DNA from: Candidatus Omnitrophota bacterium
Lineage (GTDB): Bacteria > Omnitrophota > Gorgyraeia > Zapsychrales > Fredricksoniimonadaceae
NCBI GenBank assembly: GCA_043775535.1
Contig: JAYVSG010000127.1
Span: forward strand, 1 to 44,829
DNA length: 44,829 nt
Direction of reading: 5' to 3'
In this document: in pieces, positions 1,976 to 13,192 of the stretch
Numbering within the stretch: the first letter of the stretch is position 1
How the letters are laid out: every line of letters starts with the position of its first letter
Position numbers and translations under genes: made by a program
The notes under the pieces: generated by a model
What the model was told of the DNA's origin: nothing
Databases searched by the model: none
What the model saw: the letters and a program-made list of their open reading frames with translations, nothing else

Positions 1976-2217
1976 AGGACTGGTCCGTATACATCGTGCG
2001 CTGCAGCGACGGGACCCTGTATACCGGATCCACCAATGATATCGAACGCCGCCTTAAGATGCACAATGAAGGCAAGGGCGCACGGTATACGTCCGGCCGG
2101 GGACCGGTGCAATTAGGATATAGAGAGAACGGCTGGACCAAGTCCCAGGCATTCGCGCGCGAGGCCGCCATCAAGTCTTTGACCCGTCTTGATAAAATAA
2201 AACTCTGCAATATGTGA
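1972..2217 (+). CDS. GIY-YIG domain protein (UPF0213/YhbQ-like small nuclease-fold protein)
   Basis: 81 aa. WSVYIVRCSDGTLYTGSTNDIERRLKMHNEG reads as the GIY...YTG...R..H motif set. ATGA overlap with the glpK stop. Confidence 0.85.
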   Translation: MKDWSVYIVRCSDGTLYTGSTNDIERRLKMHNEGKGARYTSGRGPVQLGYRENGWTKSQAFAREAAIKSLTRLDKIKLCNM

Positions 2218-2224
2218 GATCAGT

Positions 2225-3727
2225 GTGAACCGCGACCTTAAAAGATTCCCTAAAAGGCATTACGACCTTCTCGTCATAGGCGGAGGCATCAATGGTGCGG
2301 CCATTGCCAACCTGGCCGCGGCGGCCGGTGCGCGTGTCGCCTTGGTCGAGAAAGCGGATTGGGCATCGGGCACGTCGAGCAAATCCACCAAGCTGCTCCA
2401 TGGCGGCATCCGTTACCTTGAGAATTTTGAATTCGACCTGGTCGCTGAATCCCTGAAAGAGCGTTTCATCCAATGGAAGAATGTGCCGTACCTGGTCAAG
2501 CCCGTGCGTTTTGTGGTGCCGGTATACAAGGGTGCGGGTCGGCCATTGTGGATGATGAAATTGGGCGTCTGGCTTTATGACCTTTTAAGCGGCCGTTACA
2601 GTCTTGGCGGCCATGCGACCCTTTCCGTTGAAGAAGTTTTGCAGCTGGCGCCGGGCATTGAACAGGACGGGTTGGCCGGCGGGGTCTCCTATTTTGACGC
2701 GCAAATGGATGACGCGCGCATCTGCCTTGAGAATGTGCTGATGGCTAGGAAGCGCGGGGCGGACATTGCCAATTATGTGGAGGTGGTGGAATTCTTGAAG
2801 GTCAACGGCAGGGCCACGGGCGTGCGCGTGCGCGACACTCTTTCCGGTGATGTGGCGCAGATCATGGCGGAAAAGATCATTGTGGCCGCCGGGCCATGGT
2901 CGGACCGGATGAAGCACAAGGACAGTCCGCAGTCACGCCCCTGTTTGAGGCCCACCAAGGGCGTGCACATTGTGCATAAGGGAACGATCGGGGAGAATGC
3001 ATTTTTATTGCAGAACAAGGACGACAAGCGCATCTTTTTCATCATTCCCTTCAAGGGCAATATGCTCATCGGCACCACGGACACCGACTACAAGGACATG
3101 CCGGACCAGGTGCGGGTGGAAGAAGAGGACATTGACTATTTACTGAGCCGCTCCAAGGCCGCCTTTCCCGCACTGGATTTTTCCAGGGAAGGGATCATCA
3201 GCACCTTTGCCGGCTTAAGGCCCTTGGTCCATGAACGCGGGTCCCCGTCGAAGGTGTCGCGCAAGCATGTGCTTGAACGGAATTTTTCCGGCGTTTATTA
3301 TGTGATGGGAGGCAAATACACCACCTACCGGGCCATTGCCCGGGAATGTGTGGCCAAGCTTTTGCCCGACCGCGTCCGGCGTTTGCCCGGCGGGGAACAT
3401 TATGCCCTGTTCGGCAGCGGCCTGGTGCATGAAGATGTGAGGACCACGGCCGTGCGTTACGGGGTCCCGGCGGAGACCGTGCAGTACCTCATGTCCCTGT
3501 ATGGCAGTCGTTTCAGCGATGTGCTGGCACTGACGGAAGCCGACCATTCCCTCAAGGGCAAGCTGTGCACCTGTTCCCCGGCCATCCGTGCGCAGGTGCT
3601 GTATTCGCTCAATACGGAAATGGCCATGGGCGTGGATGATATTTATGACCGCCGTTTGGGTTTGAGCTATAATAACTGCCCCGACCGGAAATGCCGGCAG
3701 GCGATCGTTGAAATGTTAAAACAATAA
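2225..3727 (+). CDS. glpD: FAD-dependent glycerol-3-phosphate dehydrogenase/oxidase
   Basis: 500 aa with a GTG start. DLLVIGGGINGAAIA...SGTSSKSTKLLHGGIRYLE closely parallels the GlpD N-terminus. Sits in glpK context. Confidence 0.9.
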   Translation: MNRDLKRFPKRHYDLLVIGGGINGAAIANLAAAAGARVALVEKADWASGTSSKSTKLLHGGIRYLENFEFDLVAESLKERFIQWKNVPYLVKPVRFVVPVYKGAGRPLWMMKLGVWLYDLLSGRYSLGGHATLSVEEVLQLAPGIEQDGLAGGVSYFDAQMDDARICLENVLMARKRGADIANYVEVVEFLKVNGRATGVRVRDTLSGDVAQIMAEKIIVAAGPWSDRMKHKDSPQSRPCLRPTKGVHIVHKGTIGENAFLLQNKDDKRIFFIIPFKGNMLIGTTDTDYKDMPDQVRVEEEDIDYLLSRSKAAFPALDFSREGIISTFAGLRPLVHERGSPSKVSRKHVLERNFSGVYYVMGGKYTTYRAIARECVAKLLPDRVRRLPGGEHYALFGSGLVHEDVRTTAVRYGVPAETVQYLMSLYGSRFSDVLALTEADHSLKGKLCTCSPAIRAQVLYSLNTEMAMGVDDIYDRRLGLSYNNCPDRKCRQAIVEMLKQ

Positions 3728-3738
3728 CAGAGGGGCAT

Positions 3739-4809
3739 ATGAACACTGAATCCAAAACATTTTTAGTTGACCTTTTAAGCCAATGCGGGCCTTCCAGCGC
3801 CGAGGAAGCAAACCGTGCCGTATGGGTGAAGCGCACACAGAAATTTGCGGATCAATTGCGTGTGGATGTGCACGGCAATGCCATTGCGGCATTGAACCCG
3901 AAAGCAGAATTCAAGGTCATGCTGGCCGGCCATATTGATGAGATCGGATTTTTGGTTTCCCATATCGACAAGGAAGGTTTCCTTTATGTCATCGCCATCG
4001 GTGGCATCGATCCGGCCGTACTGCCCGGGACCTCGGTCAAGATATTGACCGCCAACGGCCCCATCGACGGCATCATTGGCAAGAAGCCCATCCATTTGAT
4101 GGAAGAGAGCGAACGCGGCAAGGCCATGCAGATCAAGGATTTTTGGATCGACATCGGCGCCAGCGACCGGGAAGATGCCTTGAAGGTTGTTGAGTTGGGA
4201 GACCCTGTTTCTTATGCGCCCAACGTGAAATTCTTGCGTAATGACATGTTCACCTCCAAGGGCTGCGACGACAAAGTCGGCGCCTTTGTTGTCTCCGAAG
4301 TCGTTAAGATCCTGGCCGCCTCCAAAAAGCTCGACAAGAAGATCGGTGTGTGGTCGGTTGCAACCGTGCAGGAAGAAGTTGGCTTGAGGGGCGCCCGCAC
4401 ATCCGCCTTCGGCATTGCCCCGCACGCGGCCATTGCCGTGGATGTCGGCTTCGCGTCCGACACACCGGGCATCGACAAGAAGGTCGTCGGTGAAGTGGCC
4501 CTGGGCAAAGGCCCTGTCCTGCACAAGGGTCCGAATACCAATCATATCCTGGGAGATCTCCTGGCCAAGACAGCCAAGGCCAAAAAGATCCCGTACCAAT
4601 TCTCTTCGCTTGGACGCCCGGACGGCACGGACACCGGTGCCATCCAGATCGCCCGCGACGGCACGGCCACGGCCCTGGTCAGCATACCGAATCGCTATAT
4701 GCATACCATGGTCGAGACCTGCTCGCTGACCGACTTGGTCCATTCCGCGGAACTCATTGCCCAGAGCATTCTGGCCATGAAGCCCGGGATGAGCTTTGTC
4801 CCCAGATAA
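3739..4809 (+). CDS. M42 family metallopeptidase (glutamyl aminopeptidase / FrvX-like)
   Basis: 356 aa. GHIDEIGFLVSHIDKEGFL, GCDDKVGA and QEEVGLRGA are typical M42 metal-ligand motifs. GAGGGG RBS. Confidence 0.85.
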   Translation: MNTESKTFLVDLLSQCGPSSAEEANRAVWVKRTQKFADQLRVDVHGNAIAALNPKAEFKVMLAGHIDEIGFLVSHIDKEGFLYVIAIGGIDPAVLPGTSVKILTANGPIDGIIGKKPIHLMEESERGKAMQIKDFWIDIGASDREDALKVVELGDPVSYAPNVKFLRNDMFTSKGCDDKVGAFVVSEVVKILAASKKLDKKIGVWSVATVQEEVGLRGARTSAFGIAPHAAIAVDVGFASDTPGIDKKVVGEVALGKGPVLHKGPNTNHILGDLLAKTAKAKKIPYQFSSLGRPDGTDTGAIQIARDGTATALVSIPNRYMHTMVETCSLTDLVHSAELIAQSILAMKPGMSFVPR

Positions 4810-5741
4810 TGACCGCATTGTTCAAAGCCGCCTTTGAGAAACGCATTCCCCTGCGTGAGCACACCAATGCCCTGCGCCTGGTCAATGGGCGGGGCGACGG
4901 TCTCGATGGGCTCATTCTTGAGGAATACAACGGCCATTTCGTGGCCCAGGCTTTTGAATCCCGCTGGGTTGCGCAGGCAGAGCTGATCGCAGAGATCGTG
5001 CGCACCCACTTCAAACCGCAATGCCTCCTGCTCAAGGACCGTTCCACGACGGCCTCATCTGCTGCCGACGACATTACATCCCGCTTCCTGATCAAGGGGG
5101 CGTCCCAAACAACAGTCCAAGAATATGGGCTTTCGTTCGCGGTCGATGTGCATGACGGATTGAATGCGGGATTGTTCCTGGACATGCGCGCCAATCGTCG
5201 GATGGCAGGCGCGGTCTGTAAGGACAAAAAGGTGCTCAACTGTTTTTCCTATACCTGTTCCTTCGGCGTGCATGCGCGCGCCAATGGTGCCGCCGAGGTC
5301 TTGAATGTGGACTTGAGCCGCAATTACCTTAAGCGCGGGCAGGACAATTATGCTTTGAATAAGTTTGCGCCTGGACGCGGTGAGTTCCTTTGTTTTGACG
5401 CGGTAGAATTTTTGGAAAAAGCGGTCAAGAAGGCCAATTGTTTTGATGTGATCATCATCGATCCGCCGTCCTTTGCGCGGGGGGACAAAAAGACCTTCCA
5501 GGTCAAGCGCGACCTCCCGGCGTTATTGGACAATGCCGTGAAGGTGATCACTCCTGGCGGGCATATCCTTGTTTCCACGAATTTCAACGGCATTGCGCAT
5601 ACGGACCTCAAGGGCATGTTAAAGCACGCCGCTGACAGCCGGCCCATCAAGGACATGGCCCCCATCGGGCAGGACAAGGATTTTCCCGGCACCAATACCT
5701 TCAAAGAAAGTTATCTGGCGGGCGTATGGGCATCATTTTAG
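4809..5741 (+). CDS. Class I SAM-dependent RNA methyltransferase (RlmI/RlmK-like)
   Basis: 310 aa. LNCFSYTCSFGVHA (SAM motif I region) and IIIDPPSF (motif IV). TAATG overlap with the upstream gene. Confidence 0.7.
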   Translation: MTALFKAAFEKRIPLREHTNALRLVNGRGDGLDGLILEEYNGHFVAQAFESRWVAQAELIAEIVRTHFKPQCLLLKDRSTTASSAADDITSRFLIKGASQTTVQEYGLSFAVDVHDGLNAGLFLDMRANRRMAGAVCKDKKVLNCFSYTCSFGVHARANGAAEVLNVDLSRNYLKRGQDNYALNKFAPGRGEFLCFDAVEFLEKAVKKANCFDVIIIDPPSFARGDKKTFQVKRDLPALLDNAVKVITPGGHILVSTNFNGIAHTDLKGMLKHAADSRPIKDMAPIGQDKDFPGTNTFKESYLAGVWASF

Positions 5742-8617: not shown

Positions 8618-8653
8618 GTGGCATCAAGTATATATATATGGTATCCTTTCGGC

Positions 8654-11600
8654 ATGTTCCGCAAGGGTGCCATTTTTTGCCTTATCCTGTCCTTTTTCTC
8701 TTCGACCGTGATCGGGCCGGCCTATGCCCAGGGGGTGCAGGAATTGCCTGTGCCGGGTGCCATGGTTGCCTTAAGCCCGGCCTTTGAACCGGTCTTGCTT
8801 AAAGGCCTTAAGGTCGATCCCCAGAACCCATTCGCTTTTGATTTCATTGTGGATACCGGCAGCGATCCCGTCATTGCAAACGAAGAAAAGCAATCCCAAT
8901 TAAAAGCAGAGGCCGACACCCTGATCAAATATTTCATGGCCGCCATGACGGTGCCTGAGAAGGACCTGTGGGTCAACCTTTCGCCCTATGAAAAAGACCG
9001 TATGATCGCCCCTGATCTTGGGCAGACGGAAATGGGACGGGACATGCTGGCCCAGGATTATGTGCTCAAGCAATTGACCGCCTCGCTGATCTATCCGGAG
9101 AAAGAATTGGGCAAGACATTCTGGGACAAGGTTTATGCCAAGTCCCGCGAACTTTACGGCACCACCGAGATACCGGTCAATACGTTCAATAAGGTCTGGA
9201 TCGTCGCTGACCGCGCCGACGTCTTCGAACGCGGAAATACGGCGTATGTCACAGGTGCGCATCTTAAGGTCATGCTTGCGGAAGACTATACAGCTATACA
9301 GAAGCAGATAGTTAAAGCGGGTGACCCGAAGGCGGGGACCCCGTACGCCCGCAGCGTAAGCGAGGACGAACGGGGTGCCGCAGGGGCAGGACCCGCTTCA
9401 CTAGCTTCTCAGATCGTCCGCGAAGTCATCCTTCCTGAATTGGAAAAAGAAGTGAATGCCGGCCAGAACTTTGCGCCGCTTCGACAGATGTTCTATGCCA
9501 TGATCCTGGCCTCCTGGTACAAGACCGCCCTCAAGGATGCGGTCCTGACCCAGGTCTATGGCAACCAGGGTAAGGTTTCCGTCGGTGTCAATGCGATGGA
9601 TGAAGGGGAGAAGGACAAGATCTTCGAGCGTTACCTGCAGGCCTACAAGAAGGGTGTGTTCAATTATATCAAGGACACGGCCGCTCCCGATGGTACATCC
9701 ATCCCTCGCAAATATTTCTCCGGCGGTGCCGACTTTGCCATGCTGGGCCGACCTGGCTTCCTGCATCGCAGCCAGACCGAGCTGCCGGCATCCGGCCTGA
9801 TCACGGGCAAGGCCTTCAAGGTCAGCGGGGATGCGGCCATGAACAGCGGGTCGTCATCTGTGCCGGACCAGACGGAACATCCGGATTTTGGCAGAATGTT
9901 CGATGCGAATGCACTTCTTACCTTCACAAGAGAGGATGCATACATTGATCTTCACCATTTGGGAGCTGCCATCTGGGCGGGGTTTCAGAGCAACAAAGCA
10001 GGGGTCAAAGGGATCACCATTCAAGATAAATTTGTTCTGCCTAAGGCAATGTTTTATAAGCTTGACCCGGATGGATTGGCACTACCTCTGTCTCAAGAGG
10101 AGATATCCCGACTGCCTAAAGAGACAGGGGTTGTTCACTTGAGATTGGATGATAAGAACGAAGCGTTTGCCTTCTTGTCCGGCGGCACCATTGTACTGGC
10201 CACATCCGGTTTTTCGATCGCTCCGGAACAAGATGCGGGAGACCAGCAGGCGGTCATAGACCGCCAGCAGCCCTTATATGCCAAGATGGTTTTGCTCACG
10301 GATCCCCGGCAAGCCATACGCAAGATGCTTAGGGAAGAGTTTGAGAAAAAAGGAGCGGTGGTCACTGAATTTGTCGGTAAGGAAGAGGACATTGTGCATC
10401 ATATCAGGGGCATCGATCTGGTCGTCATGGATGCGAGTGATGGGGGAACGGAGGAATCCAAGGACATGGCTATAGAGACCGCCAAGTTCCTAAGTGCCCA
10501 GGGAACCCCCGTTATCATGTTTACGCAACAGGATCCCACAGAAATAAACGGAGAATTATGGCGCCGGGGGATAACGGCTTCGGTCAAGGTTGCCGTTGTT
10601 GCCAAACAGTCCGGGCCGGTAAATATCATGTGGCATGCACGGCGAATGATCGAGGAGAAGGACAAGGCAATGTTGAGCTTGGTCTCCAGACCGCAATTGG
10701 ATTTTATGACAGATGTGCAGCCGAGATTCGATGCATTTCAGAAAGCCATTGAAGAAGTCGAACGGCTCTATCAAAAGCCGTACACGGATAAAGAAGCCCT
10801 TGCCCTGCTTTATCAGGAGGCATGGAAGAACAGCGGGGATCAGGAATCTTTATGGAATGCCTTGGTGAAAATAGAAGGCCTGCAGGAGGGCTTTGACCAA
10901 TACGAGCTTTCTCTTTTCACGCCGAAATTTGGTAATGTCGTCGACAAAGAAGATGTGCCGGAGATCCTTGAGGCGCACATGCAGCGGTCCATGGACCAGG
11001 CATATGCCCGGATGAAGGTCACTTTTGACGAGAGGATCAAAGATGCAACGGATGGAGAGCTGGAGGGCTTTTACGGTCTTTTTAGATGGGCACAAACAGA
11101 ATATCTGCGCGCCTTGGAAGATCCTGAAGATGCCCAGATAGGCGTGATGGCCATGTCCGCGCTTAATGCGGCACATGATTATTTTAGGGACAGAGCTCTG
11201 GATCTTGCAATGACGTCAAAGCCGGGCTCCCTTAAGGAGTCGATATCTAAGCGCCTAGCCCACTTCAGGTCTGAGGGCAATCATGCTATGGCGGACAATA
11301 TGATCGTGCTGATGGCTGTGCTGGTGCACGGCAATACTGGACCTATCGACCTTAAACAGTATGCAACAGAAGACAAGCTGCAAGAATTGATCGAAGATTT
11401 TGCATCAGCCGTTAGAAAGATGGGCAATGGCCCTTCAGCCTTGAGAGGGTTCTTAGCTCGGGGTTATCCTGTAGTTAAGAATGTAACGACCTTGGCGCCG
11501 GCATTTAATTTGGAAGCGCTTGTTGTATTCAGCGGTGTAAGGCATCGGGACTCCGCCATGACCGCCATTGTGGGCAGGGACGGTCTTTTGGCGCTGCCGG

Positions 11601-13192
11601 TGGGCGCGCGGGCCATATTGTTCACGGAGTCGGAGCATGACAAAGAGCAGCACCGTGACCGGGTGGCGACGGTTCTACGCACAGATGCCGCCAAAGGCAC
11701 CATTACGTTCGCGATCCCCATGAAAGGCTGGCCAAAAGACATCGAGGAGGAATATTTTGTGGATGAGTTTGGCGGGGAACGCAGGCTGAAGCTGATCAAG
11801 GCTATCCCATTGTCGAGCGAAGATGAAGCCACATGGGAGGAAGGCAAGGCGCTGCTCAAGAAGATACACGCGGAATTCAATAGGTTCAATGAATTTGGGC
11901 GAAGCGTGAGCGGGAATTTCAATGGGCTTGGGCATTTGATGGGAGGGCTCAATTCCGTTCTTTACCAGGAGTATTCCGATGTCATGGCCATGAATGCCAT
12001 GGACAAGGACTCGGATGAGGAAATGTTGACATTGCTTAAGATCATCCGCCGGCAGGTGGACAAATATTCGGACCAACAGGCGCGGTCAAAGATCTTGTCC
12101 GAGGCAAAAGATTTTCTGGCAAGATACAAGAACGTGCATGGAGATTCACGCGACGGCATGAAGAACACTTATTTTCTGTCGCTGTTCATCCAGGAAGTAT
12201 TTGAGAATGACGAGGAGTATGGGCATTTCGTCGACCATTTGAAGGTAGTCAAAGGTACGTTGGATGCCCATTCTGAGCGTATCAAAGACATTATCTCAGG
12301 GTTCTATCAACGCGACCAGCCCGATACTGTTCGAGACCCGGCCATGATCGGTGAATGGCGCAAGACGCGGCAGAACTTCATTTATAAATTCGCATGGGAG
12401 AGGGATAACGATAGTGTCATATTGGCCGTCAGTCCTGACTACCAGGACGGCGCCCGCGATGGACAGATCATTTATGAGATATTTCCCGTCCCATGGAAAG
12501 GGCAAAGTGAACAGGATATCATGGGCTTATATAAGGGGCATGTCACACTGACCCTAAAAGAGGGGGTGGTGACCGGCTGGCAGTCATTGGCTATTTCACC
12601 GCGCCGTGAGAAGGAGATGCCTTGGCTTGTTGGTTTCCTGGAGAGCAAACTTGAGACCTTAAAAGGAAAAATCTTATACCATGAGGCTACGTTCAGGGAA
12701 TTCGTTGAGACCTTCGCTCCCCAAGAGAAGGAAATTGCGTTGAGGGTTATGCAGATGTATCTCACCTATCTTGCAGGGGATCTGCCTGAATTCAACAAAG
12801 CCTCCCTTCCCGATAGTGTGGACATCTTCTTGGAGCGTTTTACACATACATTTCATGCTAAAACATTTTCCGATTTTAGGGATGTCGCCTTCTTGATGAG
12901 CCCTCTGAAGTATCAGGAAATGGTCGACTTGAGCATTCGTAATATATACACACAGATGACAGGGAGGCTCTTGGTCGAGTTCCGTGACCCGGCCATGGCC
13001 GTTACACCCGGCGGTATCGACCTTGACCGCGCCAAGATGCAGATGAATATTGAGAAAGAGGGCGAAGGGGTCAGGATGAAACTCAACCAGGAGCTGGTCG
13101 ACCGCATCCGGCGCCAGGGTTTTGACGGCCTGGAATTCAATATCCGCACCATTGTGCCTATCATCGACCTCAGGCAATTCCTATTTGCTTGA
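8654..13192 (+). CDS. Giant secreted protein of unknown function (~1,512 aa)
   Basis: Single uninterrupted ORF, 8618-13192 in the track. I prefer the ATG at 8654 because it yields a canonical Sec leader, MFRKGAIFCLILSFFSSTVIGPAYA|QG. No catalytic family motif recognised. Confidence 0.8.
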   Translation: MFRKGAIFCLILSFFSSTVIGPAYAQGVQELPVPGAMVALSPAFEPVLLKGLKVDPQNPFAFDFIVDTGSDPVIANEEKQSQLKAEADTLIKYFMAAMTVPEKDLWVNLSPYEKDRMIAPDLGQTEMGRDMLAQDYVLKQLTASLIYPEKELGKTFWDKVYAKSRELYGTTEIPVNTFNKVWIVADRADVFERGNTAYVTGAHLKVMLAEDYTAIQKQIVKAGDPKAGTPYARSVSEDERGAAGAGPASLASQIVREVILPELEKEVNAGQNFAPLRQMFYAMILASWYKTALKDAVLTQVYGNQGKVSVGVNAMDEGEKDKIFERYLQAYKKGVFNYIKDTAAPDGTSIPRKYFSGGADFAMLGRPGFLHRSQTELPASGLITGKAFKVSGDAAMNSGSSSVPDQTEHPDFGRMFDANALLTFTREDAYIDLHHLGAAIWAGFQSNKAGVKGITIQDKFVLPKAMFYKLDPDGLALPLSQEEISRLPKETGVVHLRLDDKNEAFAFLSGGTIVLATSGFSIAPEQDAGDQQAVIDRQQPLYAKMVLLTDPRQAIRKMLREEFEKKGAVVTEFVGKEEDIVHHIRGIDLVVMDASDGGTEESKDMAIETAKFLSAQGTPVIMFTQQDPTEINGELWRRGITASVKVAVVAKQSGPVNIMWHARRMIEEKDKAMLSLVSRPQLDFMTDVQPRFDAFQKAIEEVERLYQKPYTDKEALALLYQEAWKNSGDQESLWNALVKIEGLQEGFDQYELSLFTPKFGNVVDKEDVPEILEAHMQRSMDQAYARMKVTFDERIKDATDGELEGFYGLFRWAQTEYLRALEDPEDAQIGVMAMSALNAAHDYFRDRALDLAMTSKPGSLKESISKRLAHFRSEGNHAMADNMIVLMAVLVHGNTGPIDLKQYATEDKLQELIEDFASAVRKMGNGPSALRGFLARGYPVVKNVTTLAPAFNLEALVVFSGVRHRDSAMTAIVGRDGLLALPVGARAILFTESEHDKEQHRDRVATVLRTDAAKGTITFAIPMKGWPKDIEEEYFVDEFGGERRLKLIKAIPLSSEDEATWEEGKALLKKIHAEFNRFNEFGRSVSGNFNGLGHLMGGLNSVLYQEYSDVMAMNAMDKDSDEEMLTLLKIIRRQVDKYSDQQARSKILSEAKDFLARYKNVHGDSRDGMKNTYFLSLFIQEVFENDEEYGHFVDHLKVVKGTLDAHSERIKDIISGFYQRDQPDTVRDPAMIGEWRKTRQNFIYKFAWERDNDSVILAVSPDYQDGARDGQIIYEIFPVPWKGQSEQDIMGLYKGHVTLTLKEGVVTGWQSLAISPRREKEMPWLVGFLESKLETLKGKILYHEATFREFVETFAPQEKEIALRVMQMYLTYLAGDLPEFNKASLPDSVDIFLERFTHTFHAKTFSDFRDVAFLMSPLKYQEMVDLSIRNIYTQMTGRLLVEFRDPAMAVTPGGIDLDRAKMQMNIEKEGEGVRMKLNQELVDRIRRQGFDGLEFNIRTIVPIIDLRQFLFA

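Follow-up and report, generated by a model that had tools for sequence, protein, structure and literature searches.

Omnitrophota are nanobacteria that have not been cultured and probably depend on a host; they are known for giant and multi-enzyme proteins. The window analysed here, a 44,829-nt stretch of DNA from a Candidatus Omnitrophota bacterium (assembly GCA_043775535.1, contig JAYVSG010000127.1, positions 1 to 44,829), contains a long open reading frame (ORF) on the plus strand (8618..13192; 1,524 aa if read from the GTG codon at 8618), the product of which carries seven copies of the tetrapeptide D-x-A-M. The question raised by this locus is what such a tetrapeptide marks in the protein, and by what it might be read. 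The copies listed by the first-pass annotation of the window, namely DFAM at residue 372 (9731..9742), DAAM at residue 405 (9830..9841), DKAM at residue 682 (10661..10672), DLAM at residue 862 (11201..11212), DSAM at residue 978 (11549..11560), and DPAM at residues 1240 (12335..12346) and 1457 (12986..12997), as well as the variant NHAM at residue 888 (11279..11290), were all verified, and all of them lie on the plus strand. The estimate that a protein of this size should carry well under one copy was also correct: 0.35 copies are expected from its own composition (D, 7.0%; A, 9.2%; M, 3.5%), and the maximum reached in 200,000 shuffles was five, against the seven observed, so that chance is ruled out. 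When the 9,227 short patterns (seven shapes) observed in the protein were compared, D-x-A-M was the strongest outlier (Poisson p, 9 × 10−8; runner-up, 3 × 10−5).

A homology search with the window protein resulted in 2,224 matches among the 8,000 candidates scored, and the named ones all belong to Candidatus Omnitrophica/Omnitrophota. The relatives match only the first ~25% of the protein (50–68% identity) and a short C-terminal tail. The frame shared by the family consists of a Sec signal peptide, a conserved head of ~335 aa, a swappable cargo, and a ~65-aa GGIDL tail. These head-cargo-tail chains constitute a huge family of exported Omnitrophota proteins that has not been described before; no description of the family or the motif was found in the published literature searched.

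Placement and specificity of the motif

The cargo of the relatives includes enolase, phosphoglycerate kinase (PGK), phosphoglycerate mutase, hexokinase, glucose-6-phosphate isomerase (PGI), phosphofructokinase, phosphoenolpyruvate synthase and transaldolase, as well as malate synthase/isocitrate lyase, receiver domains, which are common, and helix-turn-helix domains. In those relatives where enzymes can be recognised, the motif is located in the short linkers that flank each complete enzyme. Motifs at residues 980 and 1471 of protein P0075 bracket enolase (1001–1459), and a third one at 1865 is located just ahead of PGK (1886–2285). Similarly, motifs at 343, 786 and 1363 of P0030 bracket hexokinase (353–781) and PGI (842–1331), those at 732 and 1171 of P0069 bracket transaldolase (758–1162), and the motif at 722 of P0016 lies ahead of a receiver domain starting at 731 (all domain positions are from Pfam). 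Of the homology blocks shared between family cargos, 37% begin and 34% end no more than 15 aa from a motif, compared with ~10% at random. Two positions recur across the family, one right behind the ...YFSGG of the head and the other a few residues ahead of GGIDL, and tandem copies of the motif are present in low-complexity spacers. In this family, D-x-A-M marks the seams between protein-sized modules. The module boundaries that had been proposed for the window protein from the irregular spacing of its motifs were thus borne out in the relatives, where the motif falls precisely at such boundaries, and the accompanying view that the motif is not a simple repeat agrees with the segments between the motifs of the window protein being unrelated to one another.

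Conservation of the individual sites among homologues, which had been put forward as a check, could be followed for three of the seven sites only, as the window protein's cargo lacks an orthologue: sites 372 and 1457 are partly kept, and site 1240 is kept in one of two relatives. At the head end (site 372), ~25% of 40 aligned relatives have [DNSC]-x-A-M. Before GGIDL (site 1457), about half of 38 relatives have [DNSE]-x-A-M, and approximately nine others have D-x-A-[QLAIV]. At site 1240, the relative from genome G224 reads DQAM-LGDW versus DPAM-IGEW in the window protein, and that from genome G176 reads DPSE-KVVGEW.

In total, 454 copies of D-x-A-M were found in 119 relatives, compared with 20.6 expected; the enrichment in the family amounts to 22–28-fold, with 28-fold in the cargo parts. 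With regard to the first position, only N-x-A-M (8-fold family-wide, NHAM of the window protein being of this form) and S-x-A-M (4.5-fold) are enriched besides D-x-A-M. Changing Ala or Met brings the enrichment to about 1-fold, with the exception of D-x-A-Q (2.2-fold). The residue after Met is preferably T, A, L, I or V and the next one A, S or T, while the flanks are otherwise free, which gives the full consensus [D>N>S]-x-A-M-[T/A/L/I/V]-[A/S/T]. The sole residues tolerated at the first position, D, N and S, are classic helix N-caps, and in the AlphaFold2 (AF2) model the Asp of site 1457 is predicted to cap a short helical turn that begins right after it, as is the equivalent Asn at the homologous tail helix. 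These features would suit a passive structural linker, in which the Asp/Asn N-cap and the first helical turn insulate the modules from one another and no specific reader is involved. Such a linker is an improbable explanation of the motif, since Ala and Met are strictly needed (D-x-A-L, D-x-A-I and D-x-A-V are not enriched) and Thr, another good N-cap, is not enriched either.

The genome from which the window originates (G000; 1.79 Mb, 279 contigs) contains 22 family ORFs or fragments, representing at least 15–22 paralogues. D-x-A-M occurs 58 times in the family ORFs of this genome versus 2.5 expected, whereas the remaining ORFs (≥100 aa) contain 110 copies versus 108 expected. Chance or composition as the source of the motif is ruled out by this control, by the shuffles and by the scan over every observed pattern of the protein.

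The last two DPAM copies had been reported to share an identical 12-mer behind an Arg codon, and they do so: both are encoded by GACCCGGCCATG, preceded by CGA and CGT, respectively. Analysis of codon usage revealed that Asp is encoded by 41 GAT and 23 GAC codons at the 64 motif sites of G000, with a background of 773 to 395, that GCC accounts for 60% of the Ala codons before ATG at the motif versus 71% at all Ala-Met pairs genome-wide, and that the codon of x is free. As codon usage at the motif equals the background, the identical 12-mer is DPAM written in the preferred codons of the genome, and a DNA-level signal behind it is ruled out. The constraint on the motif acts on the peptide, not on the DNA. 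These data also bear on the idea that the motif is a scar of recombination at cassette junctions, i.e., the translated trace of a DNA joint used for module swapping. Homology blocks of the family proteins begin and end at the motif, and the cargo turns over so rapidly that no orthologue is found even within the genus, both of which would be in line with a scar. It is nevertheless a quite improbable origin, because the junction DNA in G000 is no more conserved than the amino acids demand (Asp codons are at background, GCC-ATG is a genome-wide preference, and the x codon is free), and no more than 7 of the 12 bases are invariant.

Genome-specific dialects

The chief new finding of the analysis is that the seam signal exists in genome-specific dialects, as is evident from an all-or-none pattern among genomes, from independence of head lineage and tail type, and from a switch within a single genus. 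With 1–10 proteins per genome the samples are small, and the calls for single-protein genomes are provisional. D-x-A-M is all-or-none per genome. It is strongly enriched in all six tested genomes of the window's taxonomic family and in G133, G154, G148, G169, G177, G198 and G187 (hereafter, genomes of this kind are referred to as DxAM genomes), and it is absent or at expectation in G057, G091, G079, G145, G167, G141, G127, G183, G189, G131, G166, G208 and G217. All family paralogues of G000 share the D-x-A-M dialect, with 64 copies versus 2.9 expected. On a head tree, which was obtained by a quick maximum-likelihood search with 50 head domains, motif-bearing and motif-free proteins are intermingled, and the trait requires nine changes, at least six of which are forced by well-supported branches. 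As the paralogous head lineages predate the species, the motif tracks the genome and not the gene lineage. The motif is also independent of tail type, with proteins bearing type-B tails carrying it in DxAM genomes; a link to the DPAM-type tail is ruled out, since proteins of DxAM genomes with other tails have the motif.

The switch was observed in genus g112. Copies of D-x-A-M numbered 27 in G187 (2.1 expected; 18.2 thousand residues sampled), 10 in G161 (1.07 expected; 8.4 thousand residues) and five in G138 (0.70 expected; 4.9 thousand residues), whereas none was present in G131 (1.05 expected; 9.8 thousand residues) or in G175 (0.55 expected; 5.2 thousand residues). The seams of the latter two genomes (loci L047–L051) have (T)N-x-A-V-L, with N-x-A-V-L found 15 times versus 0.29 expected (p = 6 × 10−21). 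The change can be seen directly in aligned homologous junctions, which read ADQAMLSDSDDVGGIDM in G187 versus QTNAAVLPGADKVGGIDL in G131. A passive linker gives no reason why one dialect should be used across the paralogues of a genome, with D-x-A-M versus N-x-A-V-L between congeners.

In a protein of G131, N-x-A-[VI] at residues 429 and 1006 brackets a complete phosphoglucomutase (Pfam, 453–950), with no Met behind the motif. Thus, the Met of D-x-A-M belongs to the signal and is not a leftover start codon. An origin of this Met as the retained initiator of fused genes, or its use as an internal translation start producing the modules separately, might be suspected from its position, which is that of residue 1 in stand-alone enolase, PGK, hexokinase, PGI and receiver modules. 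Such an origin is very improbable. Besides the lack of Met in the sister dialects (N-x-A-V-L and D-x-G-H-V), including the phosphoglucomutase case, the upstream Asp and Ala are constrained as much as the Met itself. Shine-Dalgarno-like sequences were found upstream of 11 of the 63 motif ATGs versus 55 of the 418 other internal ATGs, and internal translation starts at the motif are ruled out by this lack of enrichment.

Searching the pooled proteins of the non-DxAM genomes for an alternative motif returned nothing. The dialects differ between genomes, and they were found by searches performed per genome. The dialect of G091 is D-x-G-H-V (5 versus 0.25 expected) and that of G189 is A-A-S-P (5 versus 0.24 expected). 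Candidate longer forms, each from a small sample, are K-D-A-G-H-V-(T/V)-x-L in G091 (L006, L007) and A-A-S-P-(A/V) in G189 (L027, L029, L030). Equally small samples gave A-S-S-x-L as a candidate dialect of G217 and G208 (L044, L045, L016), and A-S-S-P-V (6 versus 0.05 expected) in the distant branch G061/G095. Among the genomes examined, the dialects are mutually exclusive.

D-x-A-M was also detected in giant ORFs. One of them, located on contig C86 of G000, is at least 7,278 aa long, open at the contig end and has a cysteine content of 0.03%. It carries five D-x-A-M and three S-x-A-M copies clustered at residues 2159–2956, with 1.3 D-x-A-M copies expected over the whole ORF, and the seam signal thus seems to be in use within part of a giant protein as well. 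Giant-ORF pieces of other DxAM genomes contain 9 copies versus 0.9 expected (G140) and 7 versus 1.2 (G132). In the sampled giant-ORF pieces of G131 and G091, the dialects of these genomes were not seen.

Layout of the window protein and its relatives

The window gene probably starts at ATG 8654 (residue 13), which gives a protein of 1,512 aa and agrees with a 1,512-aa database record; the residue numbers used here are counted from GTG 8618 and run 12 above this gene model. GTG 8618 comes straight after the stop codon of the upstream glutathione peroxidase gene, ATG 8654 opens a textbook signal peptide, and no clear Shine-Dalgarno sequence was seen upstream of either codon. On the other side, the gene is neighboured by a carA-carB-purF-pyrG run for nucleotide biosynthesis. 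The Sec-type signal peptide, MFRKGAIFCLILSFFSSTVIGPAYA (8654..8728, plus strand), is predicted to be cleaved after AYA, as judged by eye. A signal peptide of the Sec type was present at the start of all relatives inspected, with the same n-h-c layout and an AxA site in 40 of them. The sole cysteine of the window protein is residue 21, inside the signal peptide, and the mature part has none. In the family as a whole, the cysteine content is 0.07% versus 1.1% in other long ORFs of the window genome.

The conserved head domain (residues ~38–371; 8729..9730, plus strand) shows 55–68% identity to more than 2,200 proteins, with about 70 of its columns invariant; no Pfam model, NCBIfam model or PDB fold matched it. 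Its end, ...RKYFSGG, is immediately followed by DFAM of site 372. The domain was found in 94 of the 101 genomes sampled from the order, frequently with 10 to >25 copies each, and is rare outside the order (7 of 121 genomes across the phylum). Contig ends truncate roughly half of the family ORFs of G000, and the loci are scattered among housekeeping genes. The true copy number in this genome is uncertain because the assembly seems to break at the conserved head and tail.

The second motif, DAAM, is followed by the Ser/Pro-rich NSGSSSVPDQ. The cargo (9842..12985, plus strand) consists of six mutually unrelated segments of 23–274 aa between the motifs and has no Pfam matches. No receiver domain was detected in the window protein (Pfam, E ≤ 1); the segment 10283–10657 (residues 556–680) ends at DKAM (residue 682). 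A word-indexed search with the cargo (residues 406–1456) returned no homologue, and no orthologue was found among 30 genomes of the same taxonomic family, three of which are of the same genus. With the cargo as query, HMMER run in full against 1.8 billion representatives gave a single match, which covers ~100 aa of the last module. This is the only cargo module with relatives, and DPAM of site 1240 forms its first residues. A ~130-aa domain of the pattern GW-KL ... Y-I-V ... PWL-GF-E-KL--LKG occurs in three tandem copies in family protein L071 (G224, contig C45, ORF 2002–4965, minus strand), in one copy in G176, and in one copy in the last cargo module of the window protein (residues ~1260–1390).

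Behind DPAM of site 1457, which is the pre-GGIDL junction, comes the conserved C-terminal tail AVTPGGIDL...GFDGLEFNIRTIVPIIDLRQFLFA (12998..13189, plus strand). It has the ~65-aa P-GGIDL ... GF-G ... I-P layout and aligns with more than 100 relatives, in which GGID is invariant. The tail helix opens with F-D-P-A-M in most relatives; the window protein reads L-N-Q-E-L there.

Possible readers of the signal and comparison with known systems

The signal is uniform across old paralogues, differs between congeners and is constrained at the peptide level only, which is the pattern to be expected if a trans-acting reader exists and has shifted in specificity. We see about an even chance that D-x-A-M is this lineage's version of a seam signal read by a factor acting in trans, most likely an endoprotease cutting after Sec export. 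Selection would keep a short peptide signal at each seam of the exported, nearly cysteine-free head-cargo-tail chains, a factor encoded elsewhere in the genome would read it, and this reader, most likely an endoprotease active after Sec export, would cut the chain into modules near the A↓M or M↓T bond. From the pattern of the motif we infer both that a trans-acting reader exists and that its reading amounts to cleavage. Seams between complete proteins, tandem copies in spacers, and constraint over six positions with a free second one would together best fit a processing protease, and a six-residue span with a free second residue would resemble an extended substrate lying in protease subsites. 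At present, the motif is the best candidate for the recognition, and probably the cutting, of the multi-enzyme chains.

Several results weigh against a processing protease. Neither a reader protein nor a cleavage product was identified, no recurring neighbour gene was found around the 22 family loci of G000, and a search of the whole window protein against Pfam and NCBIfam gave no match, peptidase domains included. Subtilisin S8 occurs in non-DxAM genomes and was not found in the DxAM genomes G000, G132 and G140; in the order, S8 domains occur in 63 of the 101 genomes and were not found in G000 or most of its taxonomic family. In the five genomes tested for other families, comprising three DxAM genomes other than G000 and two non-DxAM genomes, peptidases C13 and C14 were absent from all, and C39 was present in all and is therefore not discriminating. 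Some family proteins of DxAM genomes have few or no motifs (e.g., L054 of G161 and L061_1 of G187), and the N-cap geometry predicted by AF2 would also suit a purely structural or an uncleaved docking role. Finally, since its cargo is an orphan, the module boundaries of the window protein cannot be checked independently and rest on analogy with the relatives. As for the peptidase profiles, species of one genus differ in dialect, and the reader is therefore likely to occur in all genomes but with changed specificity, which makes profiling of presence and absence the wrong test. Peptidase_C39-like domains were observed in giant ORFs of 6,160 to 44,145 aa (contigs G131:C3, G132:C1, G091:C1, G140:C13 and G187:C30).

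The signal might also be read but not cut. As a recognition or docking motif, it would be bound at each seam, while the chain is unfolded, by a chaperone, an export adaptor or an assembly partner. Such binding might, for instance, hold the modules separate in transit through Sec or the outer membrane, or it might tether them. Every argument for a trans-acting reader counts equally for such docking, the export context and the cysteine depletion suggest unfolded transport, and the motif lies also inside the tail helix (F-D-P-A-M) and ahead of GGIDL, so that tail and seams might share a partner. However, the dialect switch also takes place in proteins with motif-free type-B tails, the tandem copies in low-complexity spacers suit a cut site at least as well, and no partner was identified. 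We regard docking as unlikely.

Processing at short inter-module sites would have parallels in known systems. In the MARTX toxins of Vibrio and relatives, conserved ends frame interchangeable, unrelated modules, and a short inter-module site is processed. The likeness is one of analogy only, in that a framed array of modules carries a short site between them. The window protein has no RTX repeats (HemolysinCabind or other RTX, E ≤ 1) and no Peptidase_C80, its mature part being free of cysteine, and it possesses a Sec signal peptide in place of type I secretion. Furthermore, the cargo of the family consists of housekeeping-type enzymes and regulators and not of known toxins, its site varies by species, and cleavage would here be deduced only. 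Another parallel is given by viral polyproteins (processed by picornavirus 3C, potyvirus NIa-Pro or birnavirus VP4, x-A↓A/S). In both cases whole proteins are joined head to tail, and the same site of 4–6 residues is found at every junction of complete proteins, which is also what the family exhibits. The site consensus varies between related lineages, as expected under co-evolution of protease and site. In contrast to the viral systems, the family is cellular and multi-copy (15–30 genes per genome), its proteins are exported, no embedded protease domain was found in them, and their processing is putative.

Like the cargo of type IX secretion in Bacteroidota, the family combines a Sec signal peptide with a conserved C-terminal domain of short length, and the proteins so framed are very diverse. 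However, the tail of the family gave no match to Por_Secre_tail (PF18962 / TIGR04183; Pfam and NCBIfam, E ≤ 1), and the family, which belongs to another phylum, adds a ~335-aa head and multiple cargo modules with junction motifs. The proteins differ from polymorphic toxins as well, since the C-terminus of the window protein is a conserved tail and not a variable toxin domain, the cargo of the relatives is made up of glycolytic and other housekeeping-type enzymes, and the neighbouring genes, glutathione peroxidase and carA, do not recur across the paralogues.

Closest in taxonomic terms are the giant and multi-enzyme proteins of Omnitrophota. The two preprints on them (10.1101/2023.11.21.568195; 10.64898/2026.06.07.730766, from 2026) describe long exported or membrane-associated proteins with metabolic enzyme domains, from the same phylum, and D-x-A-M is also found in portions of giant ORFs from DxAM genomes. 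On the other hand, the window protein comprises 1.5 thousand residues and not more than 10 thousand, and the S8 peptidase proposed by those authors was not found in G000. With a few related terms, neither the head-cargo-tail frame nor a junction motif was found in the text of either preprint. In the main paper on these proteins, West-Roberts et al. 2023 (10.1101/2023.11.21.568195) ask whether the giant proteins of Omnitrophota are cleaved, and state that the cleavage points are unknown. The signal of four to six residues provides concrete candidate cut or recognition sites at the seams of complete enzymes, which switch en bloc between congeners.

A broader proposal, for which the balance tips slightly towards doubt, is that Omnitrophota may make bacterial polyproteins, with dozens of genes per genome encoding exported enzyme chains, a dedicated protease of repeatedly shifted specificity, and the same signals serving as cut points of the giant proteins. 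Apart from this, the motif gives a rule for splitting the family proteins into modules for structure prediction, and the pairs of dialects within a genus are a natural experiment for locating the reader by co-evolution. If the chains are cleaved, they would represent a cellular counterpart of viral polyprotein processing at a scale undescribed in bacteria. If, further, they are polyproteins, the shifts in specificity (D-x-A-M, T-N-x-A-V-L, D-x-G-H-V and A-A-S-P) would have pulled hundreds of junctions along.

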